A stretch of DNA of 64,000 nt, from positions 6,974-70,973 of the forward strand of contig WLDG01000004.1 in NCBI GenBank assembly GCA_009704945.1. The letters run 5' to 3'. Position numbers and translations under genes: made by a program. Under the pieces are notes generated by a model. That model was not told the origin of the DNA. It was given only the letters and a program-made list of their open reading frames with translations, and did not search any database. The stretch's first letter is position 1, and each line of letters begins with the position of its first letter. The DNA is from Actinomycetota bacterium. Its GTDB lineage: Bacteria; Actinomycetota; Actinomycetes; Actinomycetales; Microbacteriaceae. Shown here piece by piece: positions 42,475 to 59,761 of this stretch.

Positions 42475-44040
42475 GTGAAAAAGCCAATAGCTATTGCCAT
42501 TGTTGCGGCACTTCTTGCCATTACGCCCCCTGTCCAGGCCCAAGAGTGGCCATGGTCTGGAGAGATGCAGGCGAGAGACAAATACGTTTTTGAGATCTGG
42601 GAAGACCCAAGATCCCAAGCTTCGCATTTAAACAGAATCGTGGACTTCAACTCACGTCTCGCACCAGGGGAGTTTCATGAGAGCAGAACTTGCGTTTCAA
42701 TTACCGAGGGGGAATGTGCAGTTCAATTGGCTGGTAGCCGAGACAGCTTTGAGGGTACTTATGTTGCACCTGTCTGCAAGACAGCCTCTGACGAAAACTG
42801 CATTGAATGGATTTCTATCCACAAAATCGGCGAGGAACCAACTCGCGGAGAACTTATAAGAAGCATCAACGGTGGCACCATGCCAAAGCTTCCTCGTTAC
42901 AACCTTCCTGCCGGAGGCACAACATCGCTTTGGAAGCAGCCAGGAATGTTGAATGGGGCAGGCAAAGACACATATGCTGTGACCCTCCGCATGGAACTGC
43001 AACACAGTGCTACCAGTCGCGGCGCCAACTTCAACATCACCGGCTATAGCTTGCAGGTACTGCCTTACAGCGAGATAACAGGGAATTTCACCCCACACTT
43101 TTGCTCCGAATATCAACAGAATGGTAAAACCAGAGTTGGTTGTGGAGGACTACCCGAAGAGTGTGCCTGGACGGAGACCGGCATCTGCGGTAGCCACAGC
43201 ACATTTCCAGAAGGCTCAACTGTCACAGCATCGTTCAGAATTGAACAATCAGCCAGCGGTTGGTTCGCTGGTCGACTGCAAGACCCGACCATCAGCGTAA
43301 GGGCAGCCAACGCAACTCAGCAGTCCGTTCAAATAACAGGCCAGCCATCCAAAGTTCCGGTCTCAAGAGGCGGCGTTTCTATTCAAAATGCTAATCAGGA
43401 GATTCGCGATCTTTACAAGCTCATTGGTTGTGATGCTGTTTGCTGGGCTGGAATTTTTGCCTACAACGATGGGGGCATAAAGTTTGTCAATGCTTTTCGT
43501 GAAACATTTGGCGATAAAGCGACTTTCGTTCGAGACATGTGGTCTATTCGAAGCATTCGAGATTTGAGTCTCGAAAGATGCGCGCCACCTAGAAACAGGC
43601 TGTTGGGTATTGTTGCAACCAATGCCACCGCCTATCAGTCCCAGCCACCCCAATACACCAATGGATTTTTGAACTTTAGGGTGGCAGGCATGCATTACCT
43701 GCCAGACGGTAAAACTGAATCAGTTGGTAGGTATGACCTGGTGATGCGTTCTGAAATTGCCAGATGCATTTATGGATTTAGAAATGCACCTGTCGCTGCC
43801 ACCATTACCGTCCTGGACAAAGACGGAAACACGGAAGTTGCAACCACCACATTTGGCGAGAGAAATGGCTGGATCAAGCTCTCAGCCAACGGCTTCACTT
43901 ACAGCGAGAAAACTGTCCGGGTTCAGCTGACTCAACCTAGGCGAACCACTATCGCCTGCGTCTCGAACACCAAACCAATCAAATCCCGCAAGGTGACAGG
44001 CATCAGCCCTAAGTGCCCATCTGGTTTCAAAAAACGCTAG
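42475..44040 (+). CDS. Secreted paralog-array protein 7
   Basis: GTG start gives MKKPIAIA...VQA signal peptide; same C-terminal region. Confidence 0.86.
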   Translation: MKKPIAIAIVAALLAITPPVQAQEWPWSGEMQARDKYVFEIWEDPRSQASHLNRIVDFNSRLAPGEFHESRTCVSITEGECAVQLAGSRDSFEGTYVAPVCKTASDENCIEWISIHKIGEEPTRGELIRSINGGTMPKLPRYNLPAGGTTSLWKQPGMLNGAGKDTYAVTLRMELQHSATSRGANFNITGYSLQVLPYSEITGNFTPHFCSEYQQNGKTRVGCGGLPEECAWTETGICGSHSTFPEGSTVTASFRIEQSASGWFAGRLQDPTISVRAANATQQSVQITGQPSKVPVSRGGVSIQNANQEIRDLYKLIGCDAVCWAGIFAYNDGGIKFVNAFRETFGDKATFVRDMWSIRSIRDLSLERCAPPRNRLLGIVATNATAYQSQPPQYTNGFLNFRVAGMHYLPDGKTESVGRYDLVMRSEIARCIYGFRNAPVAATITVLDKDGNTEVATTTFGERNGWIKLSANGFTYSEKTVRVQLTQPRRTTIACVSNTKPIKSRKVTGISPKCPSGFKKR

Positions 44041-44061
44041 TCAAGGCAATAGCCTTATCTG

Positions 44062-44964
44062 GTGCCCAAAGATCTCAAGATTCACCCAAGCGTTGAAAAA
44101 GCCCTGAAGAAGGGAAAGCCAGTTGTTGCTCTGGAATCAACCATTATTTCTCATGGTCTTCCTAGACCCAGAAACTTCCAAGCAGCCAAAGACTTCGAAC
44201 AGATCCTAATAGATAAAGGTGTTACTCCCGCCACCATTGCAGTCATCAACGGAGTCCCAACAGTGGGTCTCAATGAAGAAGAGCTTTCCCTGATTGCCAA
44301 CCAAGACATCCCCAAAGCATCAGTCAGAGACCTAGCAATTCTTTCTGCCAAAAAGATCTCAGGAGCCACAACAGTTGCCGCTACAGCTGACATCGCTGCC
44401 CGCGCAGGCGTCCAAGTCTTTGCAACCGGTGGCCTGGGTGGTGTTCACCGAGGAGCCATAGAAACCTTTGATGAATCAGCCGACATCACAACCCTTGCCT
44501 CAACACCAATTGCTGTTGTGGCAGCAGGCGTGAAGAGCGTGCTGGATATCGGAGCAACCCTGGAAAGACTCGAAACACTTTCTATTTCAGTAGTTGGCTA
44601 CAAAACCAAAATCTTTCCAAGCTTCTGGCTTCCAGAATCTGATTTCACAATCGACTGGCAAGCAGACTCAGCGGAAGAAATCGCCGAAGTCATCAAGTCT
44701 CAAAGAAAACAAAAATCAAATTCAGCTCTAGTTGTTGCCAACCCCATCCCCAAGGACAAAGCCTGGGACAAGCAGGAACACGACAGAGTGCTAGCTCAAG
44801 CCTTCAAGGCAGCCGATGAGGCAGGGGTGAGAGGCAAGGCAGTAACGCCATTTCTCCTGCAATACATCGTTGAAGCATCAGGTGGCAGATCACTAGAAGT
44901 AAACCTAGATCTTGCTAGAAACAATGTTTCCCTAGCCGCTGACATCGCCAAGGCCCTAGCTTGA
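44062..44964 (+). CDS. psuG: Pseudouridine-5'-phosphate glycosidase
   Basis: Motifs VALESTIISHG, ATTVA, FATGGLGGVHRG, DESAD and GKAVTPFLL. Confidence 0.94.
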   Translation: MPKDLKIHPSVEKALKKGKPVVALESTIISHGLPRPRNFQAAKDFEQILIDKGVTPATIAVINGVPTVGLNEEELSLIANQDIPKASVRDLAILSAKKISGATTVAATADIAARAGVQVFATGGLGGVHRGAIETFDESADITTLASTPIAVVAAGVKSVLDIGATLERLETLSISVVGYKTKIFPSFWLPESDFTIDWQADSAEEIAEVIKSQRKQKSNSALVVANPIPKDKAWDKQEHDRVLAQAFKAADEAGVRGKAVTPFLLQYIVEASGGRSLEVNLDLARNNVSLAADIAKALA

Positions 44965-45788
44965 AAAAGGTAGTCGTCATTGGCGATGTCATCGAAGACA
45001 TCATTGTTATTTCAAACTCTGAGCGCAAAACCAACACCGATAACCCATCAAGTATTGAATCAACCCCAGGGGGCTCAGGAGCCAACTTTGCAGTCTGGCT
45101 GGCATCGCTGAGTGTGGAGACAGAACTGATTGCCAGAGTCTCCAGCAAAGACAGAGAAAGCCTTGAAAACTATTTCAAGTCAGTCAAAGTAACGCCAAAT
45201 CTTCAAACAGACCAAAACCTAGAAACCGGCAAGATAGTGGTTTTGGTAGAAGGCAACCAAAGAACCTTCTTCACAGACCGAGCAGCCAACCAAAATCTAG
45301 AACAACCAACCCTTCCAGTTACTGATCTTTTATATATTTCCGGCTACTCCGTTCTCTCCCTGGGTAGAGAACAAACCCATGCTCTTATCAGTGAGGCAAA
45401 GCAGGCAGGTGCCTTGATAGCCGTTGATCCCGGCAGTACCTCTTTCATTGAGGGCTTTGGGGTAACTAACTTCCTAGAAGCCATCCAGGGAGCAGACATT
45501 GTTTTTCCTAACAAAGAGGAATACGAACTTCTAAGCAAAGACCACCAGCTCACCTCCCTGTTCCCTGAAATCGTTGTGACAAAGGGAGAACAGGGAGCAG
45601 AGCTGGTTGGGATAGCCCATGTAGACGCCAAGAGCGTTGAAGCCATTGACCCAACCGGGGCCGGGGATGCCTTTGCTGCCAAATACATAGCCGAAAGGCT
45701 CTCTGGATCGTCGCCCTTAGAGGCCCTGGAGTATGCCAATGATTTTGCGGCGCTCGCTGTTACCAGGCCTGGCGGACAGCCCAGTTAA
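44961..45788 (+). CDS. PfkB-family carbohydrate kinase (probable pseudouridine kinase)
   Basis: Motifs GGSGAN and DPTGAGDAF; overlaps the psuG stop codon. Confidence 0.85.
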   Translation: MKKVVVIGDVIEDIIVISNSERKTNTDNPSSIESTPGGSGANFAVWLASLSVETELIARVSSKDRESLENYFKSVKVTPNLQTDQNLETGKIVVLVEGNQRTFFTDRAANQNLEQPTLPVTDLLYISGYSVLSLGREQTHALISEAKQAGALIAVDPGSTSFIEGFGVTNFLEAIQGADIVFPNKEEYELLSKDHQLTSLFPEIVVTKGEQGAELVGIAHVDAKSVEAIDPTGAGDAFAAKYIAERLSGSSPLEALEYANDFAALAVTRPGGQPS

Positions 45789-45789
45789 A

Positions 45790-45840
45790 AGGAAAAAGAC
45801 CCCGAGGCCTCGAATTCGTTAGGTCTCGACGTCTTTTCCT
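45790..45840 (+). terminator. Imperfect hairpin after the pfkB kinase
   Basis: AGGAAAAAGAC...GAGGCCT / AGGTCTC...GTCTTTTCCT. Confidence 0.5.
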
Positions 45841-45983
45841 GGTCTGAGGCAAAAGGCTTGGTTTCTAATGCCTGACGATAAGAGGTAACTGGGGGATGAC
45901 CCCTTTTGTTACGGAAATCCCTGATTTTTAGGCAAAAAGCCCATATTTCAAGCAATTTTCCTTAATACACGGACAAACCGTAA

Positions 45984-45993
45984 TGTCCGGACA
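45984..45993. promoter_or_regulatory. Perfect palindrome TGTCCGGACA (candidate operator)
   Basis: Flanked by extra half-sites CGGACA (45970) and TGTCCG (45997); variants recur upstream of the other surface genes. Confidence 0.55.
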
Positions 45994-46001
45994 ATATGTC
46001 C

Positions 46002-46114
46002 GTTACCCTTTACCTGTAAGGGCTGGGCTATCTCCTGCTTGGTTGGTGGTAACTCGCTCTTGCGTCCTGCAGGTCCTATGCCTGTGGGGAAACCAAGAAA
46101 GAAAGACAAATTAC
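46002..46114 (+). promoter_or_regulatory. Conserved structured upstream/leader element, copy 1
   Basis: Shared with 49912-50021 and 53695-53803. CTTGGTT pairs with AACCAAG and encloses a GC hairpin. Confidence 0.7.
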
Positions 46115-49006
46115 ATGTCCAAAAACATGACTCGTAAGGGTCTTGCTGTTGGTACAACTTTTGCCCTAACTCTTGCAGGTTTGGTAGGCGTTGCCGCACC
46201 AGCTCATGCAACCACAGGCATCACAGTTGAGCCCTCAGCAGGTACTTCTTACAACATGATCTCGGGCGAGCAGTTCAACCTTCGCGTATTTGGCCAGTCC
46301 AACTACGCAGGTACCTTCTCAAACCTGAAGTGGGCCGTCACTAACGCCGGCGCCGCAACAGTTACCGTGAAGCAGCCAGATGGTTCTCCTGCCGCATCTG
46401 AGACTCCGGCAACTAACGTTGCAGACGGAAGTTTCAGCCCAGCTGGTAGCTCCAGCGCATCGTCTGCAACCAGCTTTGTGGTTACTCCAGCAAACATTGG
46501 TACCGCAGCGGGTTCAAACCTGCTGGGTGTATCTGTGCCTGCAGCTACTGCAGCCACCATTGAGGTTCGTGCGTTCATCGACCTCAACGGAAATGGTTCT
46601 TTCGACTCAGCTTCTGACCTAAGCGCAAATGTCGCGACAGTCACTTTCACAAAGCCAGCTGATCTAACGGCCACCACGACCATCACTTCTCCAACTGAGG
46701 GTGACACATCAATCGTGGCAAGCGTTTCTTTCAACAACATCAACAACGAGCAGGTACCAGCGGCAAACGTTGGAGCCTTCTTTACTAAGGGTGATGGAAG
46801 CACGCTGTACCCAACCGCAAGCGTAACCGCAACCGTGTTGGCCTCGAACGTTGCAACCTACACGGCCAGCAACAACTTCTTGGCTGGTCAGACTGTAGTC
46901 GTTGCAGGTCACTCGACCGCAACTTACAACGGCACCCTAACCATTGCAAGCGCTTCGGCGACTCAGTTCACCGTTGCAATCACTAACGCAAACATTGCTG
47001 CAGCTTCTGGTCTAACCGGAATCACTGCTACCAGTGCTGCGGCTAACTCGGTAAAGAGCAACTCAACTTGGTCAGCAACTGACAAGTTCAAGTTCACCAG
47101 CTCAACCGTTAGCGCTTTGGTGAAGGCAACCGGTGTTAAGGTTCAGCCTCTGTACAAGGTTTCTGGTTCACCAGCAAGCACTGACACAGTGGCAACCGCA
47201 GCAACCGCAGTTGTTGTAGCTCGCAAGGCTGCAACCATCGTTGGTGATGTTGTGGCAAACACCACAGGACGCGTAACCAACGCAGGTACTGCTGGTCAGA
47301 CCTTGCTTAACTCTTCCTTCCAGGCGAAGGTTGTAGTGAAGGATGGCGCAACCACTCCAGCTGGTGTGGGCGGCGCAGCGGTTACCGCGACAATCACTTC
47401 AACAGGCCTGCAGTCAACTGCACCTGCAAAGACCCTAACCGTCAACGGAACCACCTACAGCAGCTCTTCAGCTCTGCCAGGACAGGGATCAGTTGCCAAG
47501 TTGGCTCTAACCACCAATGCGTCAGGCGAGGCAGTGATTAACTTCACTTCCGCTGGCTACTCGGCTAACGACACCATCACTGTTGTCTTCTACACCGAGA
47601 ACCTAACCGCTTCGACTTTGACAATCACCCAGGTTGCTGCGTCCTACACCGCAACTGTTCGTCCATCATTCTTCGTAACCACTGACGGTACTGCTGTATC
47701 CGTACCAGTTGTGGTTTACGACCAGTTTGGTGGCGTACCAGCGGACAAGTACGACGTTCGCGCAACCTTTGACGCAAACAACAACGGATACTCCGCACAG
47801 GCAACCACTGCAGCAACCTCTGGTTCAAACGCAGTGACTGCTCTAGTTGGTGGCCGTGGAACCCTGTCGATTACCGACAACGGAACCGGTCTGGGTGTCA
47901 ACTCCTACGACGTAACTGTCCAGGAGCGTCTGGCTGGTAACAACTACGGATCAACTATCACTACAGCCGTTGAGGTCAACGTACACATTGTTGCCGCCGC
48001 AACCTTGGTTGCAGCGACAGTAACCTCAAACGGAACTCAGGACAGCACCACCAAGGTCTATGCAATCGCAGGCCCAGTGGCACTATCCCTAGTTACCCCA
48101 ACTGCCTACGACAGCGTGACTGTCCTAGGAGCCGCTCCAACCAGCTTCACCGGTGCACTAACCGCTCAGAACATCACTGGAACAGTTTCAACCGTTGCTA
48201 ACGCAACGACTGCAGCTGTTGTAGTACCTGGTGCGCTAGTAACCGTAAGCTCGCCTGGCATGCTGTTCCAGGATGGTTCAACCGGTCGCTACACCGTTGG
48301 ATCAATCACCGTCAGCGCTAACACCTCTGGTGTTTACAGCGTTAACGTTTACTCCAACAAGTCTGGAAAGCAGACCTTTGCAATTTCCTCTGGAGCCGCT
48401 TCAGCCACAACTACCGTTGTGTTTGCTGCAGCAGCTGCTACCACTGGAACTTCTTTGGTAATTGACGCACCAGACTACGTTCGTCCAGGCAGCACCTTGA
48501 CCATCAAGGGTCTTCTAAAGGACAAGTACGGAAACAACATTGACACCACCGCGGCTGACCGCATCAAGGTCAGCTACACCGGTCCTGGGCTACAGGTTGG
48601 ATCCACTCCAACTGCCTACACCGAAGGCGTTGCTCAGTTGGGCTACTTCCTAGGTTCAAATGACACGGGAACCATCTCCGTAACCTTCAGCTACAACTCT
48701 GACGGTACAGACGATGTCTTCACCAGCGACACTGACCTAACTGTCACCAAGACCATCACCATTGGCACTGCACCAGCAGCTGCCAAGGTTAACGTTGGTT
48801 CCTTCAACGGCAAGCTAGTTGTATACGCAAACGGATACAACGGCAAGAAGATCTCATGGAAGGTAGGCGGAAAGTGGGGCTCAGCAGTTGCTGCTAGCGA
48901 CACTGCACGCTTCGCCCGCGTAACACCTCGCAAGGGTGTAACCGTATCCGTACAGATCTACGTTGACGGTGTTCTAACACTAACTAAGTCTGTAGTTACC
49001 AAGTAA
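46115..49006 (+). CDS. S-layer-like large secreted Ala/Thr/Ser/Gly/Val-rich protein 1 (963 aa)
   Basis: Signal peptide MSKNMTRKGLA...AHA, beta-rich composition, C-terminal KVNVGSFNGKLVVYA...ISWKVGG.W...LTKSVVTK. Confidence 0.85.
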   Translation: MSKNMTRKGLAVGTTFALTLAGLVGVAAPAHATTGITVEPSAGTSYNMISGEQFNLRVFGQSNYAGTFSNLKWAVTNAGAATVTVKQPDGSPAASETPATNVADGSFSPAGSSSASSATSFVVTPANIGTAAGSNLLGVSVPAATAATIEVRAFIDLNGNGSFDSASDLSANVATVTFTKPADLTATTTITSPTEGDTSIVASVSFNNINNEQVPAANVGAFFTKGDGSTLYPTASVTATVLASNVATYTASNNFLAGQTVVVAGHSTATYNGTLTIASASATQFTVAITNANIAAASGLTGITATSAAANSVKSNSTWSATDKFKFTSSTVSALVKATGVKVQPLYKVSGSPASTDTVATAATAVVVARKAATIVGDVVANTTGRVTNAGTAGQTLLNSSFQAKVVVKDGATTPAGVGGAAVTATITSTGLQSTAPAKTLTVNGTTYSSSSALPGQGSVAKLALTTNASGEAVINFTSAGYSANDTITVVFYTENLTASTLTITQVAASYTATVRPSFFVTTDGTAVSVPVVVYDQFGGVPADKYDVRATFDANNNGYSAQATTAATSGSNAVTALVGGRGTLSITDNGTGLGVNSYDVTVQERLAGNNYGSTITTAVEVNVHIVAAATLVAATVTSNGTQDSTTKVYAIAGPVALSLVTPTAYDSVTVLGAAPTSFTGALTAQNITGTVSTVANATTAAVVVPGALVTVSSPGMLFQDGSTGRYTVGSITVSANTSGVYSVNVYSNKSGKQTFAISSGAASATTTVVFAAAAATTGTSLVIDAPDYVRPGSTLTIKGLLKDKYGNNIDTTAADRIKVSYTGPGLQVGSTPTAYTEGVAQLGYFLGSNDTGTISVTFSYNSDGTDDVFTSDTDLTVTKTITIGTAPAAAKVNVGSFNGKLVVYANGYNGKKISWKVGGKWGSAVAASDTARFARVTPRKGVTVSVQIYVDGVLTLTKSVVTK

Positions 49007-49020
49007 CTACTCGCTAAACC

Positions 49021-49053
49021 ACTAACCCCCCGGGTCCCCCTCGGGGGGTTAGT
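49021..49053. terminator. Terminator between convergent genes
   Basis: ACTAACCCCCCG...CGGGGGGTTAGT. Confidence 0.8.
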
Positions 49054-49056
49054 CAT

Positions 49057-49746
49057 TTAACTAACTTGTGCTCTGAGGATTCCTAGGTGGAGAGCTCGCT
49101 TCACTGCTTCATTTCTAGAGCCCACACCAAGAGCTCTGTAGATTTTCACGGTCTCTTGTCTTATGGAGCTTTCAGAGAGAATCATGTCTTGAGCAATCTC
49201 CGCATTGGTTTTACCAAAGCTCATTGCTTCCAGAATCTTTAGTTGGCGATCGGTAAGGGCATCAGGTGATGCATCGCCGTTTTTGCCATTAGAGCTAAAG
49301 CCATTGACTAATCCGGTGGAGCTGAGCCAAAGACCTAATACCTGGCCCATGGCCAGGTTGGCTTCTTTGGGAAACTCCGCCATCTTCTCTCTCTGGCAGA
49401 ACATCGCACTACCTAGGGGAGTGTCGCCCTTGAGCATTGGAATGGCATATAGATGCAGCTTGCTGCCCTGGTGTTGTGCTTCTTGGTGAGAAAGCCCATT
49501 GTTGTTGATTGCTTTAGCTAACAGGTTGTCTTCCCAGGTGGAGAAGACTTGATCGGCAGGTAGTGGGTTTACCCCATAACCGCCTAACTGAACTATCTGG
49601 CCTTTGTTGTCTAGCAGGTAGAGATAGCTACCTATTCCTTGACCAGTGTTTACCCCTGAGTGCACCAGCTTCTTACACAGCTCTGAAACTGTGGTACTTG
49701 ACGAGACCAGTTCAGTCCATTTCTGTAGCCAACCTAGATTTGGCAT
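49057..49746 (-). CDS. LuxR-family HTH regulator with GAF-like N-terminal domain (1)
   Basis: HTH LTDRQLKILEAMSFGKTNAEIA...SESSIRQETVKIYRALGV; no receiver domain. Start set at MPNLG. Confidence 0.85.
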   Translation of the reverse strand: MPNLGWLQKWTELVSSSTTVSELCKKLVHSGVNTGQGIGSYLYLLDNKGQIVQLGGYGVNPLPADQVFSTWEDNLLAKAINNNGLSHQEAQHQGSKLHLYAIPMLKGDTPLGSAMFCQREKMAEFPKEANLAMGQVLGLWLSSTGLVNGFSSNGKNGDASPDALTDRQLKILEAMSFGKTNAEIAQDMILSESSIRQETVKIYRALGVGSRNEAVKRALHLGILRAQVS

Positions 49747-49804
49747 AAATCCCCGTTCGTACAATCCCCAATGTCCGTTCATTAGAACAGTAAGTGAATT
49801 ATCA

Positions 49805-49812
49805 GGGGGGGG
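49805..49812. repeat. G8 homopolymer in the divergent luxR/surface-gene intergenic region
   Basis: ATCA-G8-CAGTCC. Confidence 0.8.
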
Positions 49813-49911
49813 CAGTCCTTTCTTAGAGGGACGCCTCTCATTGTCCGTACAACAGTTAGCTATGTCCTGTCTGTCCTAGTACGAAACTGATAACTATTTT
49901 CACCCCCGCTG

Positions 49912-50021
49912 GTTACCTATCTCTGTAAGAGTGCGCTATCTCCTGCTTGGTTGGTGGTATCTCGCTCTTTCAGCCTGCCCTCTTAAGGGGGCGGGTAAAC
50001 CAAGAAAGAAAGACAAATTAC
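49912..50021 (+). promoter_or_regulatory. Conserved structured upstream/leader element, copy 2
   Basis: CTTGGTT 49946-52 pairs with AACCAAG 49998-50004; inner hairpin GCCTGCCCTC-TTAA-GGGGGCGGGT. Confidence 0.7.
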
Positions 50022-52721
50022 ATGTCCAAAAACATGACTCGTAAGGGTCTTGCTGTTGGTGCAGGTCTAGGACTTGTCTCATCATTGCTGGTAGGTACTG
50101 CACCTGCTTTCGCAAACGAGACCCTAGCTCTGTCCCCAACTTCAGGTACTTCTTACAAGGTTCTCACTACTACCGACTTCGACTTAACTGTCGGATTTGC
50201 TGGTAACGAGAGCTCACAGGCTGTTGACACAGTCAAGTACCTAATCTCCAATCCATCAGGTGCCACAATGGCATTCGATGTGATTGCGAATGGTTCTGCT
50301 GCTGGCACCGTCTTTGACCGCGTGCCTGGCTCAACCACTGACGCTGCGGCTACCGCTACTTCTGTTGTTGTTGGAGACGGCACCGCAGACGTAATCGGAG
50401 CTCGAAGCGGAATCAATGTCTCCATTACTCCTGTCGAAGCAACAAGCGCCAACATCACTGTTCGGGCTTTCTTGGACATTAATGGCAATGACAGCATGGA
50501 TGATAACGAAGCTCGTTCACCGGCTCGCACGATTGAATTCATCGATCACGCGATTTGGACTGGTCGCGCCGTGCTTGACACCGCTGTCGTTGGTGGAACC
50601 ACCTTGTCGGCCTACGTTCTGCTTGACGGAATCAACTACCACCAGCTGGACTCAAACGACGTACAGGTTGAATTCTTTAGGGACAATGTCGCCATTGCTT
50701 CTCCTCCTGCCGGTGAAACTAGCCCTGCAGTGACAGGTGGCACGGCTACCGTTGCACAGAGAACCAACCCGAATATTGCGGTTTGGTCAAGTGCAGATGG
50801 TGAACTTCGAGCTACTCTTACACCAGATTCGAACACTGTTGTAGACGCCGTTATGGCAACTGTTGCTAACGTATCGACCTCTGTTTACTCAGCAAGAGTT
50901 CGTCTTTACGATGGAACTGCTTGGCAGGTAGTGGCAAACTCGACCAATGGAGTAACACCAACCTCTGGTCAGATTTCGGCTCTAGCTGCAATCACTGAGA
51001 CTGCAAGCGTATCTACTGATGGATCTGACAACATTCGCGTTGGAGCTGGAACATTTACTTCCAGAACTACCGCAACTGTTAACGCTGGATTCGCTCTAGC
51101 CGGTCAGGCAGTTACTTTCACCATCTCTGAAGCGAGCGCGAACTCAATCGCAACTGCAGCTTCTATTACCGCTGGTGGAAAGACTCTAACCAACTCAAAC
51201 ATTGCAAGCACTCAGAGAATCACAGTAGACGTGGTTACTAACGCTCTAGGCCGTGCAAGCGTTGATATCTCTTACACAGGTATCGCTGCTGGCAACACCT
51301 TCACCGTTACCGCATCTGCCTTGAACACAAATGCTGCAGTTACTACTTCGGCAGTAACTTACACAGCAGTTCTGTCTGACGTTGCTTTTGCACAGTCAAA
51401 CGTAAAGGCCGGATCACTACAGACCGTAGTAGGCCAGTCCTTCTCTGTGACTTGGAACATTGTGGACACCTTTGGTCAAGTACCGGTCGGAACATACAGA
51501 CTGGTATTGGGCGAGAACTCCTCTTCCGCAAACTATGCACAAACAATCAACTTCGTGAATGGTGCTGCAACGCTGACTCAGACTGAGAACAGCACTGCTG
51601 CAAACACCTACACACTAAGTGCGGCTGTTGAGCAGCAGAATGCAGATGGAAGCTGGGATGCTACGCCAAGTGCTGGAGATGCAGCCGTTGCAGCCAACGT
51701 CACAGTTCAGGCCTACACAGCTGACCCAACAGTAACAACCGTCACTGTTTCGGCTTCGGCTACTGGTATTGGTGCAGCTGCTGACTTGGCACTAGAACTC
51801 GACTCCACCTACTCAGGTGACAGAGATCTACTGCGTAACTCAGTTGCTTTCCCAACCCTGGTTGATGTGTCAACTCTTACCTACACAGTAAGAAGCAGCA
51901 CTGGAGAAGCCCTTGTTGGTGAGCCAATTACTGTCTCAGCTGCAGGCCTACAGTTCGCTGCAGAGTCTGACACCTGGTTCGGAGTAGGTTCCATCGCTGG
52001 AACTACGAACGCAAGCGGACAGTTCGTTGTAAAGGTCTACAGCAACCTTGCTGGTTCACAGACCGTTACTGCAACTGCTGGTGGAGTATCCAGAACTCAA
52101 GAGCTGGTATTCCAGCAGGCTAAGGACGACACTGGTTTCACACTAACCCTGTCAGCCCCTACCAACGCTCCAAAGGGAAGCACCTTCAAGGTGACTGCAA
52201 CTTTGAGAGATGAGTTTGGAAACCTAGTAACCACAAGCTCAACTGCAACCAACTTCAACGATGGAACAACTGCACCGACCTTCAACATGACCTACACCGG
52301 TCCTGGTCTGATTGTTGGCGCTCTTCCAACCGCGACTGTAAATGGTCTAGCTGAGTTCAGCGTTCTATTGGGAGCAAACGACACCGGCTCAATCTCTGTC
52401 ACAGCAAGCTATGACGCTGATGGAACTGGCACTGCCTCAGCAGCAGTGGCCGCCAGCGCGTCCGTAGCTGTTGGTTCAGCTCCTGTTTCCACCACTGGCA
52501 AGGTCAACGTTGGATCCTTCAACGGCAAGCTAGTTGTTTACGCAGCTAACTTGAATGGCGCACGTATCTCTTGGAAGGTCGGCGGAAACTGGGGAACTGG
52601 AGTTGCTTCAAGCAACTACAGCATCTTCAACCGTCCAACCCCACGAGCTGGTGCAACAGTATCTGTTGACATCTACGTCAATGGTGTGAAGACACTAACC
52701 AAGTCTGTAGTTACTCGATAA
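50022..52721 (+). CDS. S-layer-like large secreted protein 2 (899 aa)
   Basis: Same N-terminus (MSKNMTRKGLA) and C-terminal domain as copies 1 and 3. Confidence 0.85.
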   Translation: MSKNMTRKGLAVGAGLGLVSSLLVGTAPAFANETLALSPTSGTSYKVLTTTDFDLTVGFAGNESSQAVDTVKYLISNPSGATMAFDVIANGSAAGTVFDRVPGSTTDAAATATSVVVGDGTADVIGARSGINVSITPVEATSANITVRAFLDINGNDSMDDNEARSPARTIEFIDHAIWTGRAVLDTAVVGGTTLSAYVLLDGINYHQLDSNDVQVEFFRDNVAIASPPAGETSPAVTGGTATVAQRTNPNIAVWSSADGELRATLTPDSNTVVDAVMATVANVSTSVYSARVRLYDGTAWQVVANSTNGVTPTSGQISALAAITETASVSTDGSDNIRVGAGTFTSRTTATVNAGFALAGQAVTFTISEASANSIATAASITAGGKTLTNSNIASTQRITVDVVTNALGRASVDISYTGIAAGNTFTVTASALNTNAAVTTSAVTYTAVLSDVAFAQSNVKAGSLQTVVGQSFSVTWNIVDTFGQVPVGTYRLVLGENSSSANYAQTINFVNGAATLTQTENSTAANTYTLSAAVEQQNADGSWDATPSAGDAAVAANVTVQAYTADPTVTTVTVSASATGIGAAADLALELDSTYSGDRDLLRNSVAFPTLVDVSTLTYTVRSSTGEALVGEPITVSAAGLQFAAESDTWFGVGSIAGTTNASGQFVVKVYSNLAGSQTVTATAGGVSRTQELVFQQAKDDTGFTLTLSAPTNAPKGSTFKVTATLRDEFGNLVTTSSTATNFNDGTTAPTFNMTYTGPGLIVGALPTATVNGLAEFSVLLGANDTGSISVTASYDADGTGTASAAVAASASVAVGSAPVSTTGKVNVGSFNGKLVVYAANLNGARISWKVGGNWGTGVASSNYSIFNRPTPRAGATVSVDIYVNGVKTLTKSVVTR

Positions 52722-52737
52722 CTAACAAGCTAAAACC

Positions 52738-52769
52738 ACTAAACCCCCAGGGAAACCTGGGGGTTTAGT
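52738..52769. terminator. Terminator between convergent genes
   Basis: ACTAAACCCCCAGG-GAAA-CCTGGGGGTTTAGT. Confidence 0.85.
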
Positions 52770-52780
52770 CATTTAATGAT

Positions 52781-53482
52781 TTAGGCGACTTCTTCTGTGA
52801 AGACGGATTGAGGGAGTAGGCCGGTTGCTTTGGCCTTTGCTACAGCTTGCTGTCTGGAGCCAACTCCTAGGATTCTGAATATCTTTACGCTCTCTTGCTT
52901 GATTGAGCTCTCAGAGAGGATTAGCTGCTGAGCGATTTGGGCATTAGTTTCACCCCTTGCCATGCCAACCAGGATCTCGTATTGACGATCGGTTAGCTGG
53001 CCTTCCTCTGGCTGAGCAGTTTCTCTAAAGAGGTTCTTCAGTCCCAGTGATTCAAGATATATGGCACCGGCGTTAGCGGCAGCGATGGTTGCTTGTTCCG
53101 AGAAGGGAACGATCTTTTCTTTAGGATCAGTGAGAGAGGTTGATGCTCCAACTGGCACATCACCTTTAATAAGAGGTAATACCCAGTTGACCAGTTCTCT
53201 GCCCTGGACTTCTCTTTTGCCGTGCCAGACAGTTCTGCTGTTGATGGCTTGGGAGAGTGGGTGGTCTTCAAATAGAGATAGCGAAGCATTTGGATCAAAT
53301 GCTTCAAGACCATAGGAACCAACCAGTTGCAGGGTTCCTCGGTTAGATAGTGCATAGAGCTGTGTGCCGAGCATTCCTCTTCCCAGTTCTGGGTCATGAG
53401 TTAGTCTGCGGCAGTAATCATTTGGATTAGTTGCTTGCGCATAAATTTGATTGATTCTGGCAATTCTTGCTAGATCATCCAT
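52781..53482 (-). CDS. LuxR-family HTH regulator with GAF-like N-terminal domain (2)
   Basis: HTH LTDRQYEILVGMARGETNAQIA...SESSIKQESVKIFRILGV; paralog of the 49057 gene. RBS AAGGGGGG before MDDL. Confidence 0.85.
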   Translation of the reverse strand: MDDLARIARINQIYAQATNPNDYCRRLTHDPELGRGMLGTQLYALSNRGTLQLVGSYGLEAFDPNASLSLFEDHPLSQAINSRTVWHGKREVQGRELVNWVLPLIKGDVPVGASTSLTDPKEKIVPFSEQATIAAANAGAIYLESLGLKNLFRETAQPEEGQLTDRQYEILVGMARGETNAQIAQQLILSESSIKQESVKIFRILGVGSRQQAVAKAKATGLLPQSVFTEEVA

Positions 53483-53600
53483 GCAATTCCCCCCTTGCAT
53501 TTCATTTACTCTCCTTCTCTCCGTTGAGCCGGTGAGTTTATTGCTACGGACAGTGTTTGGTTTTCAGTTGTCCACATTGTTCGTACAACCAAAGTATCGA

Positions 53601-53609
53601 GGGGGGGGG
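53601..53609. repeat. G9 homopolymer in the divergent luxR/surface-gene intergenic region
   Basis: ATCGA-G9-TCC. Confidence 0.8.
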
Positions 53610-53694
53610 TCCTTTATTGAGTACATTTTGTAGAACATTTGGATTGACCGTTTAGACCTAGTCAATCCTTGATAACTAACTACCACCCCCTCTG

Positions 53695-53803
53695 GTTACC
53701 TAACCCTGTAAGAGTGCGCTATCTCCTGCTTGGTTGGTGGTACCTCGCTCTTGCAGCCTGCCCTCAAAGAGGGTGGGTAAACCAAGAAAGAAAGACAAAA
53801 TAC
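53695..53803 (+). promoter_or_regulatory. Conserved structured upstream/leader element, copy 3
   Basis: CTTGGTT 53729-35 pairs with AACCAAG 53780-86; inner hairpin GCCTGCCCTC-AAA-GAGGGTGGGT. Confidence 0.7.
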
Positions 53804-56800
53804 ATGTCCAAAAACATGACTCGTAAGGGTCTTGCATTGGGTGTTGGAGCAGTTCTTGTCGCATCAACCTTTGGCGTAGCGCCTGCTAACGCTAACGGTC
53901 TAGCTGACAAGTCATTTGTTTCCCTTACACCACGTGTAGGAACCGAGTACACAGTTCTAATGGATCAGTACTTTGACCTAAGCGCGAATGTTGCCGATAC
54001 CCTAGCCGGTACCAGCGGTCGCGACCTTAAGTTCCTAGTCTCTGACCCACAGAGCAGAGTGTTTGTTGACCAGTCGCAGACTGACAGCGTGACTAGTTAC
54101 TCTGCAGCCGGCAGCACTCTAGCTTCAATTGGTGTGTCATCTACCACCGCTACTTTGACGGTCAGTGGAACTGCTGTCGCGGCGGGAGAAAAGCTGTTTG
54201 TATACGGAATGACTGGCCAGTCCGGAACCGACTTCAACGGCAAGGTATTCACACGCACCGCTGACACCACTGCCACATTGACCGTCACTGCTGGCACTGC
54301 AAATGCGACTGTTACCGGTGCGGTTGCAGAAAAGACCAACGGCCTGAACACTCGAGCTGCAATTCTTGCAAATGGGTCTCTAGGTGATGCTGACTTGTTT
54401 GAGTCTGCAACAATTCAGGACCAGGCAGGCAAGACTATGACTGCTGGCCGTGCGTCGGATGGCACATTTGTTGTTGACACCAACACAAACGCTAATGCCA
54501 ACAACCGCCTATTGCGTCTAGTTGCAAACACCACGTCAACCTACTCAGTGACAGTCACTGCATGGGTTGACTCAAACAACGACGGTCTGATCAATGACAC
54601 CGAATACACCTCACCTGCACGAACTGTTACGTTCGTGAAGGCTGGAGATGTAACCGCTGTTACCACTCTTTCCCCAATTGTTGGTGACGAAAACCTCGTT
54701 GCAAACATCACAACCACTCCAGTATTGAACGGAAACCAGGTATTGGCTCAGGATGGCGACTTCCTGAACGCTGCCTTTACTCGTTCCCTTTCGACCTCAA
54801 CTGTTTACTCAGCTGTTGACCTGGCATCAACCACTCAGAGCTCAGCTTGGAACGACACAACCAAGACCTGGACTGTGACTGCTAGCTTGGACGCTGATGC
54901 AGCTGGTGAGAGAAACACTGCTGATGGAAGCGTTGTTACCGACTCATGGGCTGGTATTGCTGCCCCTACTGCGTCAGGCATAACTGCTGTTTCAGTTTCA
55001 ACCACAGGTCTCGTAACTGTGACTGATGCTGCACACGGCTTGAGAACTGGCGACAGAGTTACTGTTGTAATCGACGCAGCCGATACATCTGTTGCTATCG
55101 CAGGTGAATCAGTTGCAAGGACGGTTACTGCAACTGGACCAGACACGTTCACGTACCAGGTGTCAGAAACAACTGGCTTCCCAACGTCTACGGCAACAGA
55201 TTCTTCAGTTGGTGGCAGCACCGCCTGGACTCTTGCGACTTACACAGGCCCACAGGGTCTAGCTGACCGCGTTGGTGCTGAGACCTACTCAGCTCAGGCT
55301 GTCATCCAGACTGGTGCTTCAACCTGGACCGCTATTTCAACCAAAGTTGAGACTGGCGTAACTTCTGCTGCAACTTCAAGCGCCGAGGTTTCGACCAAGG
55401 CTTCGACAGCTGTACAGGGCAAGGTCTACGATGACCAATCTGGAACAAATGCAGCTCAGGTACTCACTGGTACTAAGACTGTTGAAGTTACCTTCACAGC
55501 TCTTGATGCCGATGGTGATGCTCTAGGCGCAGGCCGTCCAATCGCTGTAACCCTGACCAGATCAGGAACTGTGGACACAGCCCGTGTCAACGGCAAGACC
55601 GCTGACACTGTTCTAACTGGTGCAAATGGAACCGCAACCGTAACCATCACAGCTGTGAATGGTGCCAAGGACATGGATCTACGTGTTCAGGGTGTTGTTG
55701 AGAACCGTGCAACTGTTTACATTGATCTACAGTGGCGCGATGCGTCGTTCGGTCTAGTTGACCTAGCGACCACCGCAGCATCTCTAAACACATCAGAGAC
55801 CCGTGCAATGGTAGAGCTTGGTTCGTACACCATGAACTTGGCTGTTATGGACCAGTGGTACAACGCACCAGCTGCGGGCGCCTACCGCCTGAAGCTAACC
55901 GGTGAAGGTGTAGCTGCACAGTTCGTTGCTCTAAACAATGGACGTGCAAACGTAACCGTTACTGACACTGGCGTGTTTGGTACTCAAGTTGCGACCGTAA
56001 TCGACCTAGAGAAGATGAGCGGCACCACAGTTACTGGAACTACCACTTACACAATCACTGCAGACCTAGCTAAGACCTACAGGGTCGTTTTGGGTGCTAA
56101 CGGTACGACTCTGTATGGAACTGAGGCAGATCTTTCTGATGCAGTTGCAAAGAAGGCACTACTTGAGCTGGACAAGCGCGTACAGGCTGGAGAGACTCCT
56201 GCTTATGCAAACGATGTTCTAATCAACGGACAGGTTGCTAACAACGCAACATCTGCAGGTCGTCAGGGTGCATTGGTAACCATTACTGGTCCATCAAACA
56301 TCCTGTTCTCGAACGGTGAGAAGGCTGCTCGCGGATCCTTGACATTCTTGTCAGGTTCTAACGGTAACTTCGAAGTAAAGCTGTACTCAACTGCCGCTCA
56401 GACTGACACAGTGATTACTGTTACCTCCAACGGTGCATCTTCAACCACCAAGGTAACCTTCACTGGTATCGGTGTTGGTGAAGGTACCAAGCTGGATGTC
56501 ACTGCACCTGCTAATGTTCGCCCAGCTTCAACCTTCCAGGTGAAGGCCAAGCTGTCTGACGCATTCGGCAATGGTGTTGAGGCAACTGCTGGTCGCGTAA
56601 AGGTCACCTACACCGGTCCTGGAATTGTCTTTGGCACCTTGCCAGACAAGACCGACAAGAACGGTGAACTAATGTTCTCCGTGCTTCTAGGTTCAAACGA
56701 CACTGGCAACGTAGTTGTCACTGTGTCTTATGACCAGAACGGTGACGCTGACTACGTTGACGCTAAGGACCTAAACACCACCAAGACCATCACTGTTGGT

Positions 56801-57046
56801 ACTGGTGCTGCAGCAGGTGCTGGCAAGGTTAACGTTGGCTCCTTCAACGGCAAGCTAGTTGTTTACGCAGCTGGTTTGAACGGCGCACGTATCTCTTGGA
56901 AGGTCGGCGGAAACTGGGGATCTGCAGTTGCTTCAAGCAACTACAGCATCTTCAACCGTCCAACCCCACGAGCTGGTGTGACTGTATCGGTTGACATCTA
57001 CGTCAACGGTGTTTCGACACTAACCAAGTCTGTAGTTACTCGATAA
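53804..57046 (+). CDS. S-layer-like large secreted protein 3 (1080 aa)
   Basis: Same N- and C-termini as copies 1 and 2. Confidence 0.85.
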   Translation: MSKNMTRKGLALGVGAVLVASTFGVAPANANGLADKSFVSLTPRVGTEYTVLMDQYFDLSANVADTLAGTSGRDLKFLVSDPQSRVFVDQSQTDSVTSYSAAGSTLASIGVSSTTATLTVSGTAVAAGEKLFVYGMTGQSGTDFNGKVFTRTADTTATLTVTAGTANATVTGAVAEKTNGLNTRAAILANGSLGDADLFESATIQDQAGKTMTAGRASDGTFVVDTNTNANANNRLLRLVANTTSTYSVTVTAWVDSNNDGLINDTEYTSPARTVTFVKAGDVTAVTTLSPIVGDENLVANITTTPVLNGNQVLAQDGDFLNAAFTRSLSTSTVYSAVDLASTTQSSAWNDTTKTWTVTASLDADAAGERNTADGSVVTDSWAGIAAPTASGITAVSVSTTGLVTVTDAAHGLRTGDRVTVVIDAADTSVAIAGESVARTVTATGPDTFTYQVSETTGFPTSTATDSSVGGSTAWTLATYTGPQGLADRVGAETYSAQAVIQTGASTWTAISTKVETGVTSAATSSAEVSTKASTAVQGKVYDDQSGTNAAQVLTGTKTVEVTFTALDADGDALGAGRPIAVTLTRSGTVDTARVNGKTADTVLTGANGTATVTITAVNGAKDMDLRVQGVVENRATVYIDLQWRDASFGLVDLATTAASLNTSETRAMVELGSYTMNLAVMDQWYNAPAAGAYRLKLTGEGVAAQFVALNNGRANVTVTDTGVFGTQVATVIDLEKMSGTTVTGTTTYTITADLAKTYRVVLGANGTTLYGTEADLSDAVAKKALLELDKRVQAGETPAYANDVLINGQVANNATSAGRQGALVTITGPSNILFSNGEKAARGSLTFLSGSNGNFEVKLYSTAAQTDTVITVTSNGASSTTKVTFTGIGVGEGTKLDVTAPANVRPASTFQVKAKLSDAFGNGVEATAGRVKVTYTGPGIVFGTLPDKTDKNGELMFSVLLGSNDTGNVVVTVSYDQNGDADYVDAKDLNTTKTITVGTGAAAGAGKVNVGSFNGKLVVYAAGLNGARISWKVGGNWGSAVASSNYSIFNRPTPRAGVTVSVDIYVNGVSTLTKSVVTR

Positions 57047-57060
57047 CTAAAGATCAAACT

Positions 57061-57092
57061 ACTAAGCCCCCAGGGAAACCTGGGGGCTTAGT
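57061..57092 (+). terminator. Terminator hairpin after surface gene 3
   Basis: ACTAAGCCCCCAGG-GAAA-CCTGGGGGCTTAGT. Confidence 0.85.
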
Positions 57093-57220
57093 CATTTGAG
57101 TGGATACTCTTTCGAATTCCTATAGTGCTTCTAACTGACTTTCGGTTTCCCGAAGGTTAGTTTCGGGTCTATGTCTTTGAGCAGGGGACAAAGGGCTCTT
57201 GTTGTACGATTGACCGTACA

Positions 57221-59761
57221 ATGCCCAAACATTCCTCAGTAGGTAGAAAACGGCTGTCCTTCAGGCTAGCTGCACCATTTGCTGCACTCTCTTTGGTTGG
57301 TGTTGGGCTGGTGCCTATCGCTATTGCGAGTTCCACAATTCAGGTTTCTGTCTTTAGTTATCCGGGGCTGACTGAAGGCAACATGTCTTGCTCTGATGAA
57401 GTAGACAATCTAGAGGAAATCATTTTAGGGATTCCTGGCTACACGGTTGATCGCACCATCACAACTTTGGCTGATACGGGTGGCACCACACTTCTTCAAA
57501 GACTCAATGCCAGCAGGTTCTTTTTCGTACCTGACATGGAAAGTGCATTCAACGTGAATAGCACATCTGACTTCCCTTCAACGGCTGTCACTGCTTTTCA
57601 AACATGGTTGAACGATGGTGGAGTGCTGGTCATGACTGGTACACATGGCACCAAGGACATTGATTTTCTAAACAAGATCACAAGTTGGGGCCTTGCATCA
57701 GCGACAGGCCGGAACGGGGCAACGAGAAATGATGCCAATGCTTCTGGAACTCCGTTTGGCGATGCTTCGCTAGCGAGCACTACTCTGGGAGTGCCCAGTG
57801 CAACGGAGTCTGTCAACAAAAACACTGCACCAGGAAGTGCTAACTTCAAGGCGATGTGGGGTGTTGATAACCAGGCGGCAGTCGCAACGATGACCTACGG
57901 CCGAGGCACAATCATCTACCTTGGATGGGATTTCTTTAACTCCGGTCTCAATGAGGGAACAAATGCGCCTTGTCCTGCAAATAGTGACAACTGGGTCCAA
58001 AAGATTGTTCCCGCGGCTCTTGAATACGCTGCACAGCTTTCCGCTTCCGGACTTACCAATCCAACCAGTACTGGTGGAACACTGAATTATTCATTTGCTA
58101 ACAATGGAACCAGCTACTACGTTATTGTGCCTCGCGCCGCAACCGCACCCACTGCTGCTCAAGTTAAGGCTGGAGTTGATTACGGCGCAGTCACTGTGAC
58201 TCGAGCGGGCAATTCTCCTCAGAATGCCAACACGGAGATCAACTTCTCTATTACTGGTCTAACACCGGCAACCGATTACACGGCCTATATGGTGACTGAA
58301 TGGAACAGTCCAGCAGAGCTCTCAGCTGTAGAGACTCTAGAGTTTTCGACTGCACCTGGCACCCCCACGGTAAGTTCCGTAAGCGCTGGTAATACTGAAG
58401 TGTCTGTCGCGATTGCCCCATTTGGGACAGAGACTAACTTCGAATACAGCATTGATGGCGGTTCAAACTGGGTTGCCAGATCCCCATCGGCAGTCACTAC
58501 TCCTTGGGTGATTACTGGGCTTACCAACGGACAGTCCTACAGCTTCACATTTAGATCTTCATTCAGAACACTGCGAAGTTCTGCAACTTCGGCCTCATCT
58601 GTAACACCTGTTGGGGTTCCAGGTGCACCAACCAGCGTTTCAGGCACGGCCACAGGATCAAGCATTGCACTTAGCTGGACTGCACCAGCCAGTAATGGAG
58701 GAAGTGCAATAACTGGCTACAAGATTGAAGTATCTACTGACAATGGCTCTACCTGGACCACAGTCACGGCCAATACTGGAAACACTTCGACCAGTGCCAC
58801 CATTAGTCAGCTTTCGACTGGGAACTACCGTTATCGAGTCAGTGCCCTCAACACAAACGGAAGCTCTCTAGCATCAACTGCCTCGACTGCTGTGTCAGTT
58901 ACCGCCAGTGCTCCAGGGCTGCCGACCAATTTGGGCATTTCTCACAACGGTTTTGGTTCTGCAACCGTCAGTTGGGATCCTCCCACCAGCGATGGAGGTA
59001 GCGCCGTTACCGGTTACGTTGTGGAGTATGAAGTAGGCGGCACTTGGCAGACCTTGACACCAAGTGGGCGTGTAGCCACGGTTTCTGGAGTTTGGCCGAA
59101 TCAAGGATGGTCGTTCCGCGTGGCAGCAACGAACACGGTTGGAACTGGCAGTTTTGCCGTTCAAACTCACACACCACCCCCGCCATTCACTGGCCCCATC
59201 ATCACCAAGTTCTCTTCAAATGAGATTCCGGCTGGTTCCGGAACTAGTGTCAATTTGGAAGGTCTTCGACTGGGTCAAATCACAGAATTCTGGATCGGCA
59301 ATCAAAAACTCTCTCACACGACTGACCCATCCGGACGTGTCACCCTTCAACTACCAGCATTGGTTGCTGGAACACATAACTTGCGGATTATCTACTCTGG
59401 CGGTGCAGTCCTAATTCACCAAGATGCCTTCAGAGTCTCAAGGCCTAATGCTGGGGAAGCTCGCCCTCTGCGCTTCACAAGTTTTGCTGGAGACAGTTTC
59501 CGGTTAACTCCGGCGGCCCGTGCAGTAATTTCCGATGTGCTTAGCGGTTATTCAGGGATCAAGAAGATTACCTGCATAGGTTCAACCTCAGGGAACCGGG
59601 TCACAGCCTCTGACCAAAGACTTGCTTTTAGGCGGGCTCAAGAAGCCTGTAATCATGCAAGACAATTTGCTCCCACCGCTGAAATTGAGTTACGAGCAAA
59701 TCCAGCCGCCGGAATAGGCCCGCGCTTTAGAGGCGTGACTCTCCAAATCATCTCTGGTTAA
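57221..59761 (+). CDS. Secreted fibronectin type III repeat protein with IPT-like and OmpA-like C-terminal domains
   Basis: Signal/TM segment; FN3 motifs (LSWTAPASNGGSAITGY...YRVSALN); C-terminal F.GDS..L...CIGSTS...LAFRRAQ...R.V. Confidence 0.82.
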   Translation: MPKHSSVGRKRLSFRLAAPFAALSLVGVGLVPIAIASSTIQVSVFSYPGLTEGNMSCSDEVDNLEEIILGIPGYTVDRTITTLADTGGTTLLQRLNASRFFFVPDMESAFNVNSTSDFPSTAVTAFQTWLNDGGVLVMTGTHGTKDIDFLNKITSWGLASATGRNGATRNDANASGTPFGDASLASTTLGVPSATESVNKNTAPGSANFKAMWGVDNQAAVATMTYGRGTIIYLGWDFFNSGLNEGTNAPCPANSDNWVQKIVPAALEYAAQLSASGLTNPTSTGGTLNYSFANNGTSYYVIVPRAATAPTAAQVKAGVDYGAVTVTRAGNSPQNANTEINFSITGLTPATDYTAYMVTEWNSPAELSAVETLEFSTAPGTPTVSSVSAGNTEVSVAIAPFGTETNFEYSIDGGSNWVARSPSAVTTPWVITGLTNGQSYSFTFRSSFRTLRSSATSASSVTPVGVPGAPTSVSGTATGSSIALSWTAPASNGGSAITGYKIEVSTDNGSTWTTVTANTGNTSTSATISQLSTGNYRYRVSALNTNGSSLASTASTAVSVTASAPGLPTNLGISHNGFGSATVSWDPPTSDGGSAVTGYVVEYEVGGTWQTLTPSGRVATVSGVWPNQGWSFRVAATNTVGTGSFAVQTHTPPPPFTGPIITKFSSNEIPAGSGTSVNLEGLRLGQITEFWIGNQKLSHTTDPSGRVTLQLPALVAGTHNLRIIYSGGAVLIHQDAFRVSRPNAGEARPLRFTSFAGDSFRLTPAARAVISDVLSGYSGIKKITCIGSTSGNRVTASDQRLAFRRAQEACNHARQFAPTAEIELRANPAAGIGPRFRGVTLQIISG

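Follow-up and report, generated by a model that had tools for sequence, protein, structure and literature searches.

A recurrent structured leader RNA with an invariant loop and a complementary tail before large secreted-protein genes in Microbacteriaceae

We analysed a stretch of 64,000 nucleotides from an Actinomycetota bacterium of the family Microbacteriaceae (contig WLDG01000004.1 of assembly GCA_009704945.1), referred to below as the window, in which three large open reading frames (ORFs) are each directly preceded by a copy of the same 5' untranslated region (5'UTR). This leader recurs far beyond chance in relatives and in metagenomes, with approximately 150 distinct sequences altogether (66 from genomes and 82 from metagenomes). 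Its conserved fold, supported by two-sided compensatory changes, is a long imperfect hairpin, P1 continuing into P1b, followed by a second hairpin, P3. Two 7-mers, CUUGGUU in the apical loop of P1b and AACCAAG in the tail before the ribosome-binding tract, are essentially invariant and complementary to each other; the pairing between them is called P2 below. The leader is a new, lineage-restricted and uncatalogued RNA motif of a known functional kind, probably the 5'UTR stabiliser, and the invariant loop with its complement in the tail is its unusual feature. The best-supported reading, to which we give an even chance, is that it stabilises the mRNA of an abundant surface protein and presents the ribosome site.

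Distribution and conserved fold

An earlier note on this DNA, made from the sequence alone, had placed three leader copies at 46002-46114, 49912-50021 and 53695-53803, and all of them are present there. The alignment of the copies spans approximately 105 nt of leader and the first 32 nt of coding sequence, with a leader identity of 93% between copies 2 and 3 and of 87% between copies 2 and 1. A search of the source assembly (1.14 Mb in 36 contigs, 86% complete) gave exactly these three copies. A fourth AACCAAGAAAG site, on contig C14 of the same genome, was rejected because the sequence around it is unlike a related leader.

When 301 genomes of the family, drawn from 101 genera, were searched at the DNA level, only three genera gave matches. 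With a covariance model built from ten leaders (R1), the window's genus gave the leader in 27/62 genomes (17/24 when high-quality genomes alone are counted), a second genus in 10/41 and a third in 1/6. A later model (R2) raised the count for the second genus to 25/151 genomes, and with it no leader was found in the other genera sampled in 151 genomes. The metagenome scan required the loop half and the purine tract and left the position of AACCAAG free; it returned leader-like matches in at least 120 stretches. One leader-bearing relative is an uncultured Aquiluna sp., and on account of this named relative the carriers appear to be small-genome aquatic Microbacteriaceae. We take the Aquiluna group to be the 'Luna' lineage, which is presumably common in lakes, estuaries and coastal water.

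The long imperfect hairpin followed by P3 is obtained both with RNAalifold and when sequences are folded singly. P1 is a stem of approximately 10 bp (GUAAGAG.. with ..CUCUUAC). Beyond a small internal loop it continues as P1b (in the window, UAUC-U-CC with GG-U-GGUA), which in turn ends with two C-G closing pairs and the 9-nt loop U(G/A)CUUGGUU. P3 is variable in sequence and starts 0-1 nt after P1. In the 66 distinct genome sequences, the proportion of paired cells was 85% for P1, 92% for P1b and 91% for P3, and changes on both sides were seen in 10/10, 4/6 and 8/8 of the modelled pairs, respectively. The covariation score of this set was 0.63, compared to 0.17 for shuffles and at most 0.10 when the partners were slid by 1-3 columns. 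The metagenome set of 82 distinct sequences, which was ascertained differently, gave similar values (P1 85%, P1b 93% and P3 90% paired; score 0.50 versus 0.15). Although the alignments were fitted to the covariance model and for this reason favour structure, the slid controls and the alignment-free folding agree all the same. The minimum free energy (MFE) folds of single sequences lacked P2 in 45 of 50 optimal nested folds, the folds shown being P1+P1b+P3, with P1b worth -9.2 kcal/mol. The folding z-score of copy 3 was -3.25.

This fold differs from the one proposed in the earlier note, where CUUGGUU:AACCAAG was an outer stem around a weak helix and a hairpin. Both 7-mers are indeed invariant and the tail lies directly before the Shine-Dalgarno (SD) tract, but the comparative data favour P1, P1b and P3 in place of the outer stem. 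Forcing P2 in the nested model cost 6 kcal/mol on average, and the ensemble probability of P2 was 0.05; the nested fold with P2 outermost is ruled out on energy as the main fold. The weak GGUGG/UCGCU helix was paired in only 48-66% of cells, and the UCUCCU segment that was to extend the stem over the SD is not conserved; the second genus has GCCCGCC, CACCAUUUU and others in its place. What the note had taken for a possible crossing pairing is real, and is in fact the main helix P1 rather than a side possibility. Its three strong hairpins with kept pairing are there as well: one-sided changes between copies 2 and 3 keep the pairing, copy 1 has another stem sequence, and the proposed copy 1 core CCUGCAGG/CCUGUGGG falls inside P3 as folded. 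The compensatory changes that it claimed are borne out by the covariation of homologs in two sequence sets.

With regard to terminators or attenuators, no U-run follows P1 or P3 in the three window copies. In one clade (L024, L025, L026, L029 and L043), CUUGG or UUGG just 5' of P1 could pair with CCAAG of the tail and would thereby close the leader into a three-way junction; this was not seen in the window copies.

The invariant 7-mers and the ribosome-binding site

All 69 genome hits carry CUUGGUU and AACCAAG without change. Of the 84 metagenome matches chosen with no condition on the tail, 83 have AACCAAG and the remaining one reads ACCCAAG; a further hit of the model shows CUUGGUG in the loop. 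All seven P2 pairs are invariant in the distinct genome sequences, five of the seven never vary in the distinct metagenome sequences, and G-U wobble variants of either 7-mer do not occur in the roughly 150 sequences. Because both 7-mers are essentially invariant, P2 can be neither confirmed nor refuted by covariation. By a rough estimate, the probability of finding by chance the exact complement of a given invariant 7-mer within approximately 100 nt is below 1%; we therefore think that the two segments meet, and consider P2 plausible. Since both halves are frozen while every other stem drifts, more than simple pairing seems to be under selection. Added to P1, P1b and P3, the P2 pairing would make a loop-to-tail pseudoknot worth -6.9 to -9.3 kcal/mol, with 43 to 51 nt between the 7-mers. 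The 16S rRNA of three relatives contains neither 7-mer. AACCAAG is present just downstream of the 16S in two g1 relatives (L090 and L091).

The 16S rRNA of the three relatives ends in CCUCCUUUCU, and two overlapping AGAAAG units of the leader complement its last six bases. The first unit overlaps AACCAAG by 2 nt; the second sits 7-10 nt before the AUG. The end of P2 is 17 nt upstream of that codon, and the SD proper is outside P2. Over 68 sequences, the 10 nt that follow AACCAAG have a mean predicted probability of 0.76 of being unpaired, and thus the SD tract is predicted to be left open.

Known leaders, proposed function and rival explanations

We compared the leader with known RNAs using cmscan against Rfam 15 with permissive filters. 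Positions 44000-58000 gave 8 weak chance matches at E<=10, none of them over the three leaders, in agreement with the earlier note, which had matched the element to no known riboswitch. S-layer mRNAs are highly expressed in part because a stem-loop in their 5'UTR makes the transcript more stable and keeps the ribosome-binding site exposed (PMC10221546). The leader resembles such stabilisers, for example the Lactobacillus slpA leader (PMC10221546), in its length, in the large and probably abundant surface protein encoded by the gene behind it, in a stem-loop that is probably near the 5' end, in a ribosome-binding site predicted to be exposed, and in a monocistronic gene with what appears to be its own promoter. 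However, it has no sequence or Rfam relationship to the known examples, and the combination of two hairpins with an invariant loop/tail complement is not described for them. With respect to the features that define the class, the stem-loops are conserved and stable (85-93% paired in two sequence sets) and the ribosome-binding site is unpaired in silico.

In the E. coli ompA and B. subtilis aprE leaders, a hairpin within a few nt of the 5' end blocks 5'-end-dependent RNases and the SD follows in an unstructured tract. To our knowledge, stabilisers of this type act without a conserved loop sequence, whereas here the loop is frozen and has its complement beside the SD. In H-type pseudoknot leaders such as the rpsO/S15 operator and the SAM-II and preQ1-II riboswitches, a hairpin loop complements a downstream strand beside the SD, the pseudoknot contains or traps the SD or start codon, and its pairing shows covariation. 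The leader differs from these in that neither the SD nor the start codon lies within P2, P2 never varies, conserved nucleotides resembling a ligand pocket are absent, and there is no Rfam match.

T-box leaders (RF00230) were also considered, as UGGU of the loop could pair with an ACCA 3' end; AACCAAG itself contains ACCA, and copy 3 reads GGUGGUACC, which we take to be as in the T-box consensus. This candidate was rejected: there is no RF00230 match, no Stem I or specifier, and the downstream genes encode surface proteins and not aminoacyl-tRNA synthetases. The T-box-like GGUGGUACC occurs in copy 3 only; the GGUGGUA segment covaries like any ordinary strand of a helix, and the second genus does not conserve it. 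The idea of an anticodon mimic was likewise dropped, its key features being absent or not conserved. A literature search on Aquiluna or Rhodoluna surface proteins and on either 7-mer gave nothing relevant.

The position of the hairpin in the transcript can be judged from the upstream sequence. The motif [AG]TAA[CT]-N16/17-[CGT][CG][CT]TA was found upstream of 55 of the 69 homologous leaders, compared to 1.1% of shuffles, and most of the other leaders carry near-variants of it. It ends 7-9 nt before the first P1 pair. We take this bipartite motif to resemble promoters of extracytoplasmic function (ECF) sigma factors; a 'GTAAC'-like -35, a 'CGT'-like -10 and a spacer of 16-17 nt are all there. 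As the ECF-like motif predicts a start within a few nt of P1, P1 is probably the 5'-terminal hairpin and transcription probably starts a few nt from it.

The three downstream proteins have a signal peptide, no cysteine, and a composition rich in T, A, V, S and G (14-16% Thr and 13-15% Ala). We assume that they form a cell-surface coat, with which their size, signal peptide and composition fit; they are S-layer-like by composition. In the proposed function, the leader would be the ~100-nt 5'UTR of a monocistronic mRNA for a very large, and probably very abundant, S-layer-like surface protein. Transcription would start a few nt after the ECF-sigma-like promoter, and the RNA would open almost at once with the P1/P1b hairpin. 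This 5'-terminal hairpin may protect the mRNA from being degraded in a 5'-end-dependent manner by RNase E or RNase J, while the contact of the loop with AACCAAG, together with P3, would compact the remaining single-stranded leader and leave only the ribosome-binding tract exposed. The outcome would be a long-lived and efficiently translated mRNA, with the leader acting as a constitutive element. The suggestion in the earlier note of a cis-regulatory RNA, either a stabiliser or a translational switch, is therefore retained as far as the class is concerned, a stabiliser or translational element in a conserved structured leader being the best one; its architecture is replaced by P1/P1b/P3.

Several observations weigh against the stabiliser reading. 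A simple stabiliser does not explain 7+7 frozen bases without wobble, which would indicate a sequence-specific partner. P2 has no covariation support, and the two variants ACCCAAG and CUUGGUG are both uncompensated and hit the two A-U pairs at one end of P2. AACCAAG follows P3 after only 1-2 nt, and P3 directly adjoins the foot of P1, so that the loop at the end of a straight P1/P1b rod would be distant from the tail; P2 may therefore need a bend at the internal loop or the opening of P1b, and P1b at -9.2 kcal/mol compares to -6.9 kcal/mol for the P2 duplex. A scan for sigma-70 promoters upstream of the genes found none. With respect to the S-layer identity, the window proteins matched no family in Pfam, NCBIfam or PDB.

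These frozen bases are better accounted for by the main rival reading, a regulatory switch or an operator for a trans-acting factor. Either the invariant 9-nt loop on its covarying stem would be read by a protein or small RNA, or P1b and P2 would exclude each other, and their balance, dependent on a factor, on temperature or on processing, would control ribosome entry next to the SD. A loop that does not change, carried by a stem that covaries freely, is typical of a sequence-specific recognition hairpin, and the absence of wobble in some 150 sequences is in line with it. P1b and P2 are similar in strength, their coexistence is doubtful given the tight spacing (P3 begins 0-1 nt after P1, and AACCAAG 1-2 nt after P3), and the last two bases of AACCAAG also belong to the first AGAAAG unit. 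Furthermore, LuxR-family regulators and a specialised promoter at the locus suggest a clearly regulated system. However, the SD proper is outside P2 and is predicted open in both states, which leaves no obvious on/off mechanism, and the nested P2 state is disfavoured by the 6 kcal/mol and the ensemble probability given above. Conserved nucleotides at junctions or bulges, as in ligand-binding aptamers, are absent, no candidate partner emerged, and the 16S rRNA of relatives is without either 7-mer. We hold the switch or operator to be possible, though on the doubtful side. A bistable device, in which the loop sits on P1b in the primary transcript and re-pairs with AACCAAG beside the SD after a trigger, seems unlikely to us; its trigger would be a loop-binding factor or the nucleolytic removal of the 5' strand of P1. 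If true, the re-pairing would reset translation or re-cap a processed 5' end, and would give abundant aquatic actinobacteria a dedicated post-transcriptional control by which to change from one surface coat to an alternative one.

LuxR-type regulators often read heptamer half-sites, and CTTGGTT ... AACCAAG could at the DNA level be a split inverted-repeat operator in the transcribed region, bound by the neighbouring LuxR-type regulators. The halves form a perfect inverted repeat, LuxR/GerE genes lie divergently beside copies 2 and 3, and total invariance without wobble suits protein-DNA recognition as well as RNA pairing. However, the spacing of the halves, which varies over 43-51 bp, shifts the helical phase and is unsuited to a dimer, the covarying RNA helices between the halves argue for selection on this region at the RNA level, and the TGTCCGGACA-type palindrome in the promoters is a much better operator candidate. 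We therefore regard the DNA-level operator as very improbable. That the similarity has no dedicated function and is a by-product of recent duplication and gene conversion of gene ends can hardly be upheld and is effectively refuted: the identity of the first 32 coding nt against 34-36% protein identity does show that concerted evolution of 5' ends occurs in the window, but it cannot yield dozens of two-sided stem compensations, the leader is kept across three genera and many environmental lineages with coding starts that differ at synonymous sites, and the sequence divergence of the homologs contradicts recent horizontal copies.

The leader is a ready candidate for an Rfam family, and the frozen 7+7 complement provides a clean test case for loop-tail contacts that are invisible to covariation methods. 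The genes behind the leader likely encode the main surface coat of the carriers, and hence a probable target of phages and grazers. A motif with some 150 distinct examples may give a handle on coat expression in cells that are uncultured or hard to grow.

Features of the window, upstream motifs and downstream genes

The features of the three copies are collected in Table 1.

Table 1. Positions of the leader features and of the downstream genes in the window. Pairing and promoter assignments are predictions; the column Basis gives the method where it applies.
Feature	Position	Strand	Basis
Copy 1 promoter-like bipartite motif GTAAT-N16-CGTTA, ECF-sigma-like, with GTCCGGAC palindrome in spacer	45980-46005	+	
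Copy 1 hairpin P1/P1b, 9-nt apical loop UGCUUGGUU	46015-46064	+	MFE fold, covariation
Copy 1 invariant CUUGGUU	46038-46044		
Copy 1 hairpin P3, UCCUGCAGGU/GCCUGUGGGG, directly abuts P1	46065-46089	+	MFE fold
Copy 1 AACCAAG (46091-46097), then purine tract AAAGAAAGA directly 3'	46091-46106	+	
Gene 1 (ATG at 46115), 963 aa secreted protein, N-terminus MSKNMTRKGLA, conserved C-terminal module	46115-49006	+	
Copy 2 promoter-like motif ATAAC-N16-GGTTA	49890-49915	+	
Copy 2 hairpin P1/P1b	49923-49973	+	Fold
Copy 2 invariant CUUGGUU	49946-49952		
Copy 2 hairpin P3, GCCUGCCCU/GGGGGCGGG as folded	49974-49995	+	
Copy 2 AACCAAG (49998-50004), then SD tract AAAGAAAGA directly 3'	49998-50013	+	
Gene 2 (ATG at 50022), 899 aa secreted protein, same family as gene 1	50022-52721	+	
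Copy 3 promoter-like motif ATAAC-N17-GGTTA	53672-53698	+	
Copy 3 hairpin P1/P1b	53706-53756	+	Fold
Copy 3 invariant CUUGGUU	53729-53735		
Copy 3 hairpin P3, GCCUGCCCU/AGGGUGGGU as folded	53757-53777	+	
Copy 3 AACCAAG (53780-53786), then SD tract AAAGAAAGA directly 3'	53780-53795	+	
Gene 3 (ATG at 53804), 1080 aa secreted protein, same family as gene 1	53804-57046	+	
C-terminal module KVNVGSFNGKLVVYA...SWKVGG.WG...	about 48770-49006, 52480-52721, 56805-57046		

The promoter-like motif is kept in three genera in the form (G/A)TAAC-N16/17-(C/G)G(T/C)TA (for example at L026, L049 and L054). Two subtypes can be told apart: the first gene of the cluster is preceded by CGTAAT...CCGTTA and the later ones by (A/G)TAAC...TGGTTACC, and both recur in the same order in the loci compared (G000, G011 and G249). 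The spacer of the copy 1 promoter contains GTCCGGACA at 45984-45993, and similar GTCCG/CGGAC motifs are seen at approximately 49776-49850 and at 53570-53600. A TGTCCGGACA-type palindrome and ATGTCCG repeats lie within or beside the promoter-like motif in several genera and at many homologous loci; together they are a likely candidate operator for the neighbouring LuxR-family regulators, whose LuxR/GerE-domain genes adjoin copies 2 and 3 in divergent orientation.

Eleven metagenome contigs begin 1-9 nt before CCUGCUUGG (L094, L118, L122, L126, L139, L148, L163, L164, L165, L169 and L171). Ten of them, 2.6-3.0 kb in length, end 2-30 nt past the stop codon of the surface-protein gene, and L148 (5.3 kb) runs on for 2541 nt. 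They may be transcripts with a 5' end inside P1/P1b or may result from assembly breaks at blocks shared by paralogs, and were not used as evidence for the start site. A look-up of the exact protein sequences returned nothing but genomic contigs.

The N-terminus given for gene 1 in Table 1 is common to all three window proteins, which are otherwise only 34-36% identical to one another, compared to 87-93% for the leaders. At every genome locus examined, the gene behind the leader begins with the signal peptide M(S/F/Q)KNxTR(K/R)GLA. In the window, the first 32 coding nt are identical in the three paralogs (46115-46146, 50022-50053 and 53804-53835), synonymous sites included, and in other genera the same N-terminal peptide is encoded with different synonymous codons. 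This identity in proteins that are approximately 35% identical suggests gene conversion of the 5' ends in the source genome.

The C-terminal module of approximately 80 amino acids recurs in many other secreted proteins of the window's genus. It also ends ORFs of approximately 430-450 and of several thousand amino acids, with two more in the source genome on contigs C18 and C13, and looks like a general surface-anchoring domain without a Pfam model. Since the other module-bearing proteins of the window's genome have no leader copy, the leader appears to belong to the large proteins and not to the module. Just 3' of gene 3, at 56994-57095, a weak sub-threshold Rfam match to His_leader was obtained (27 bits, E 0.64), which is most likely a terminator hairpin.

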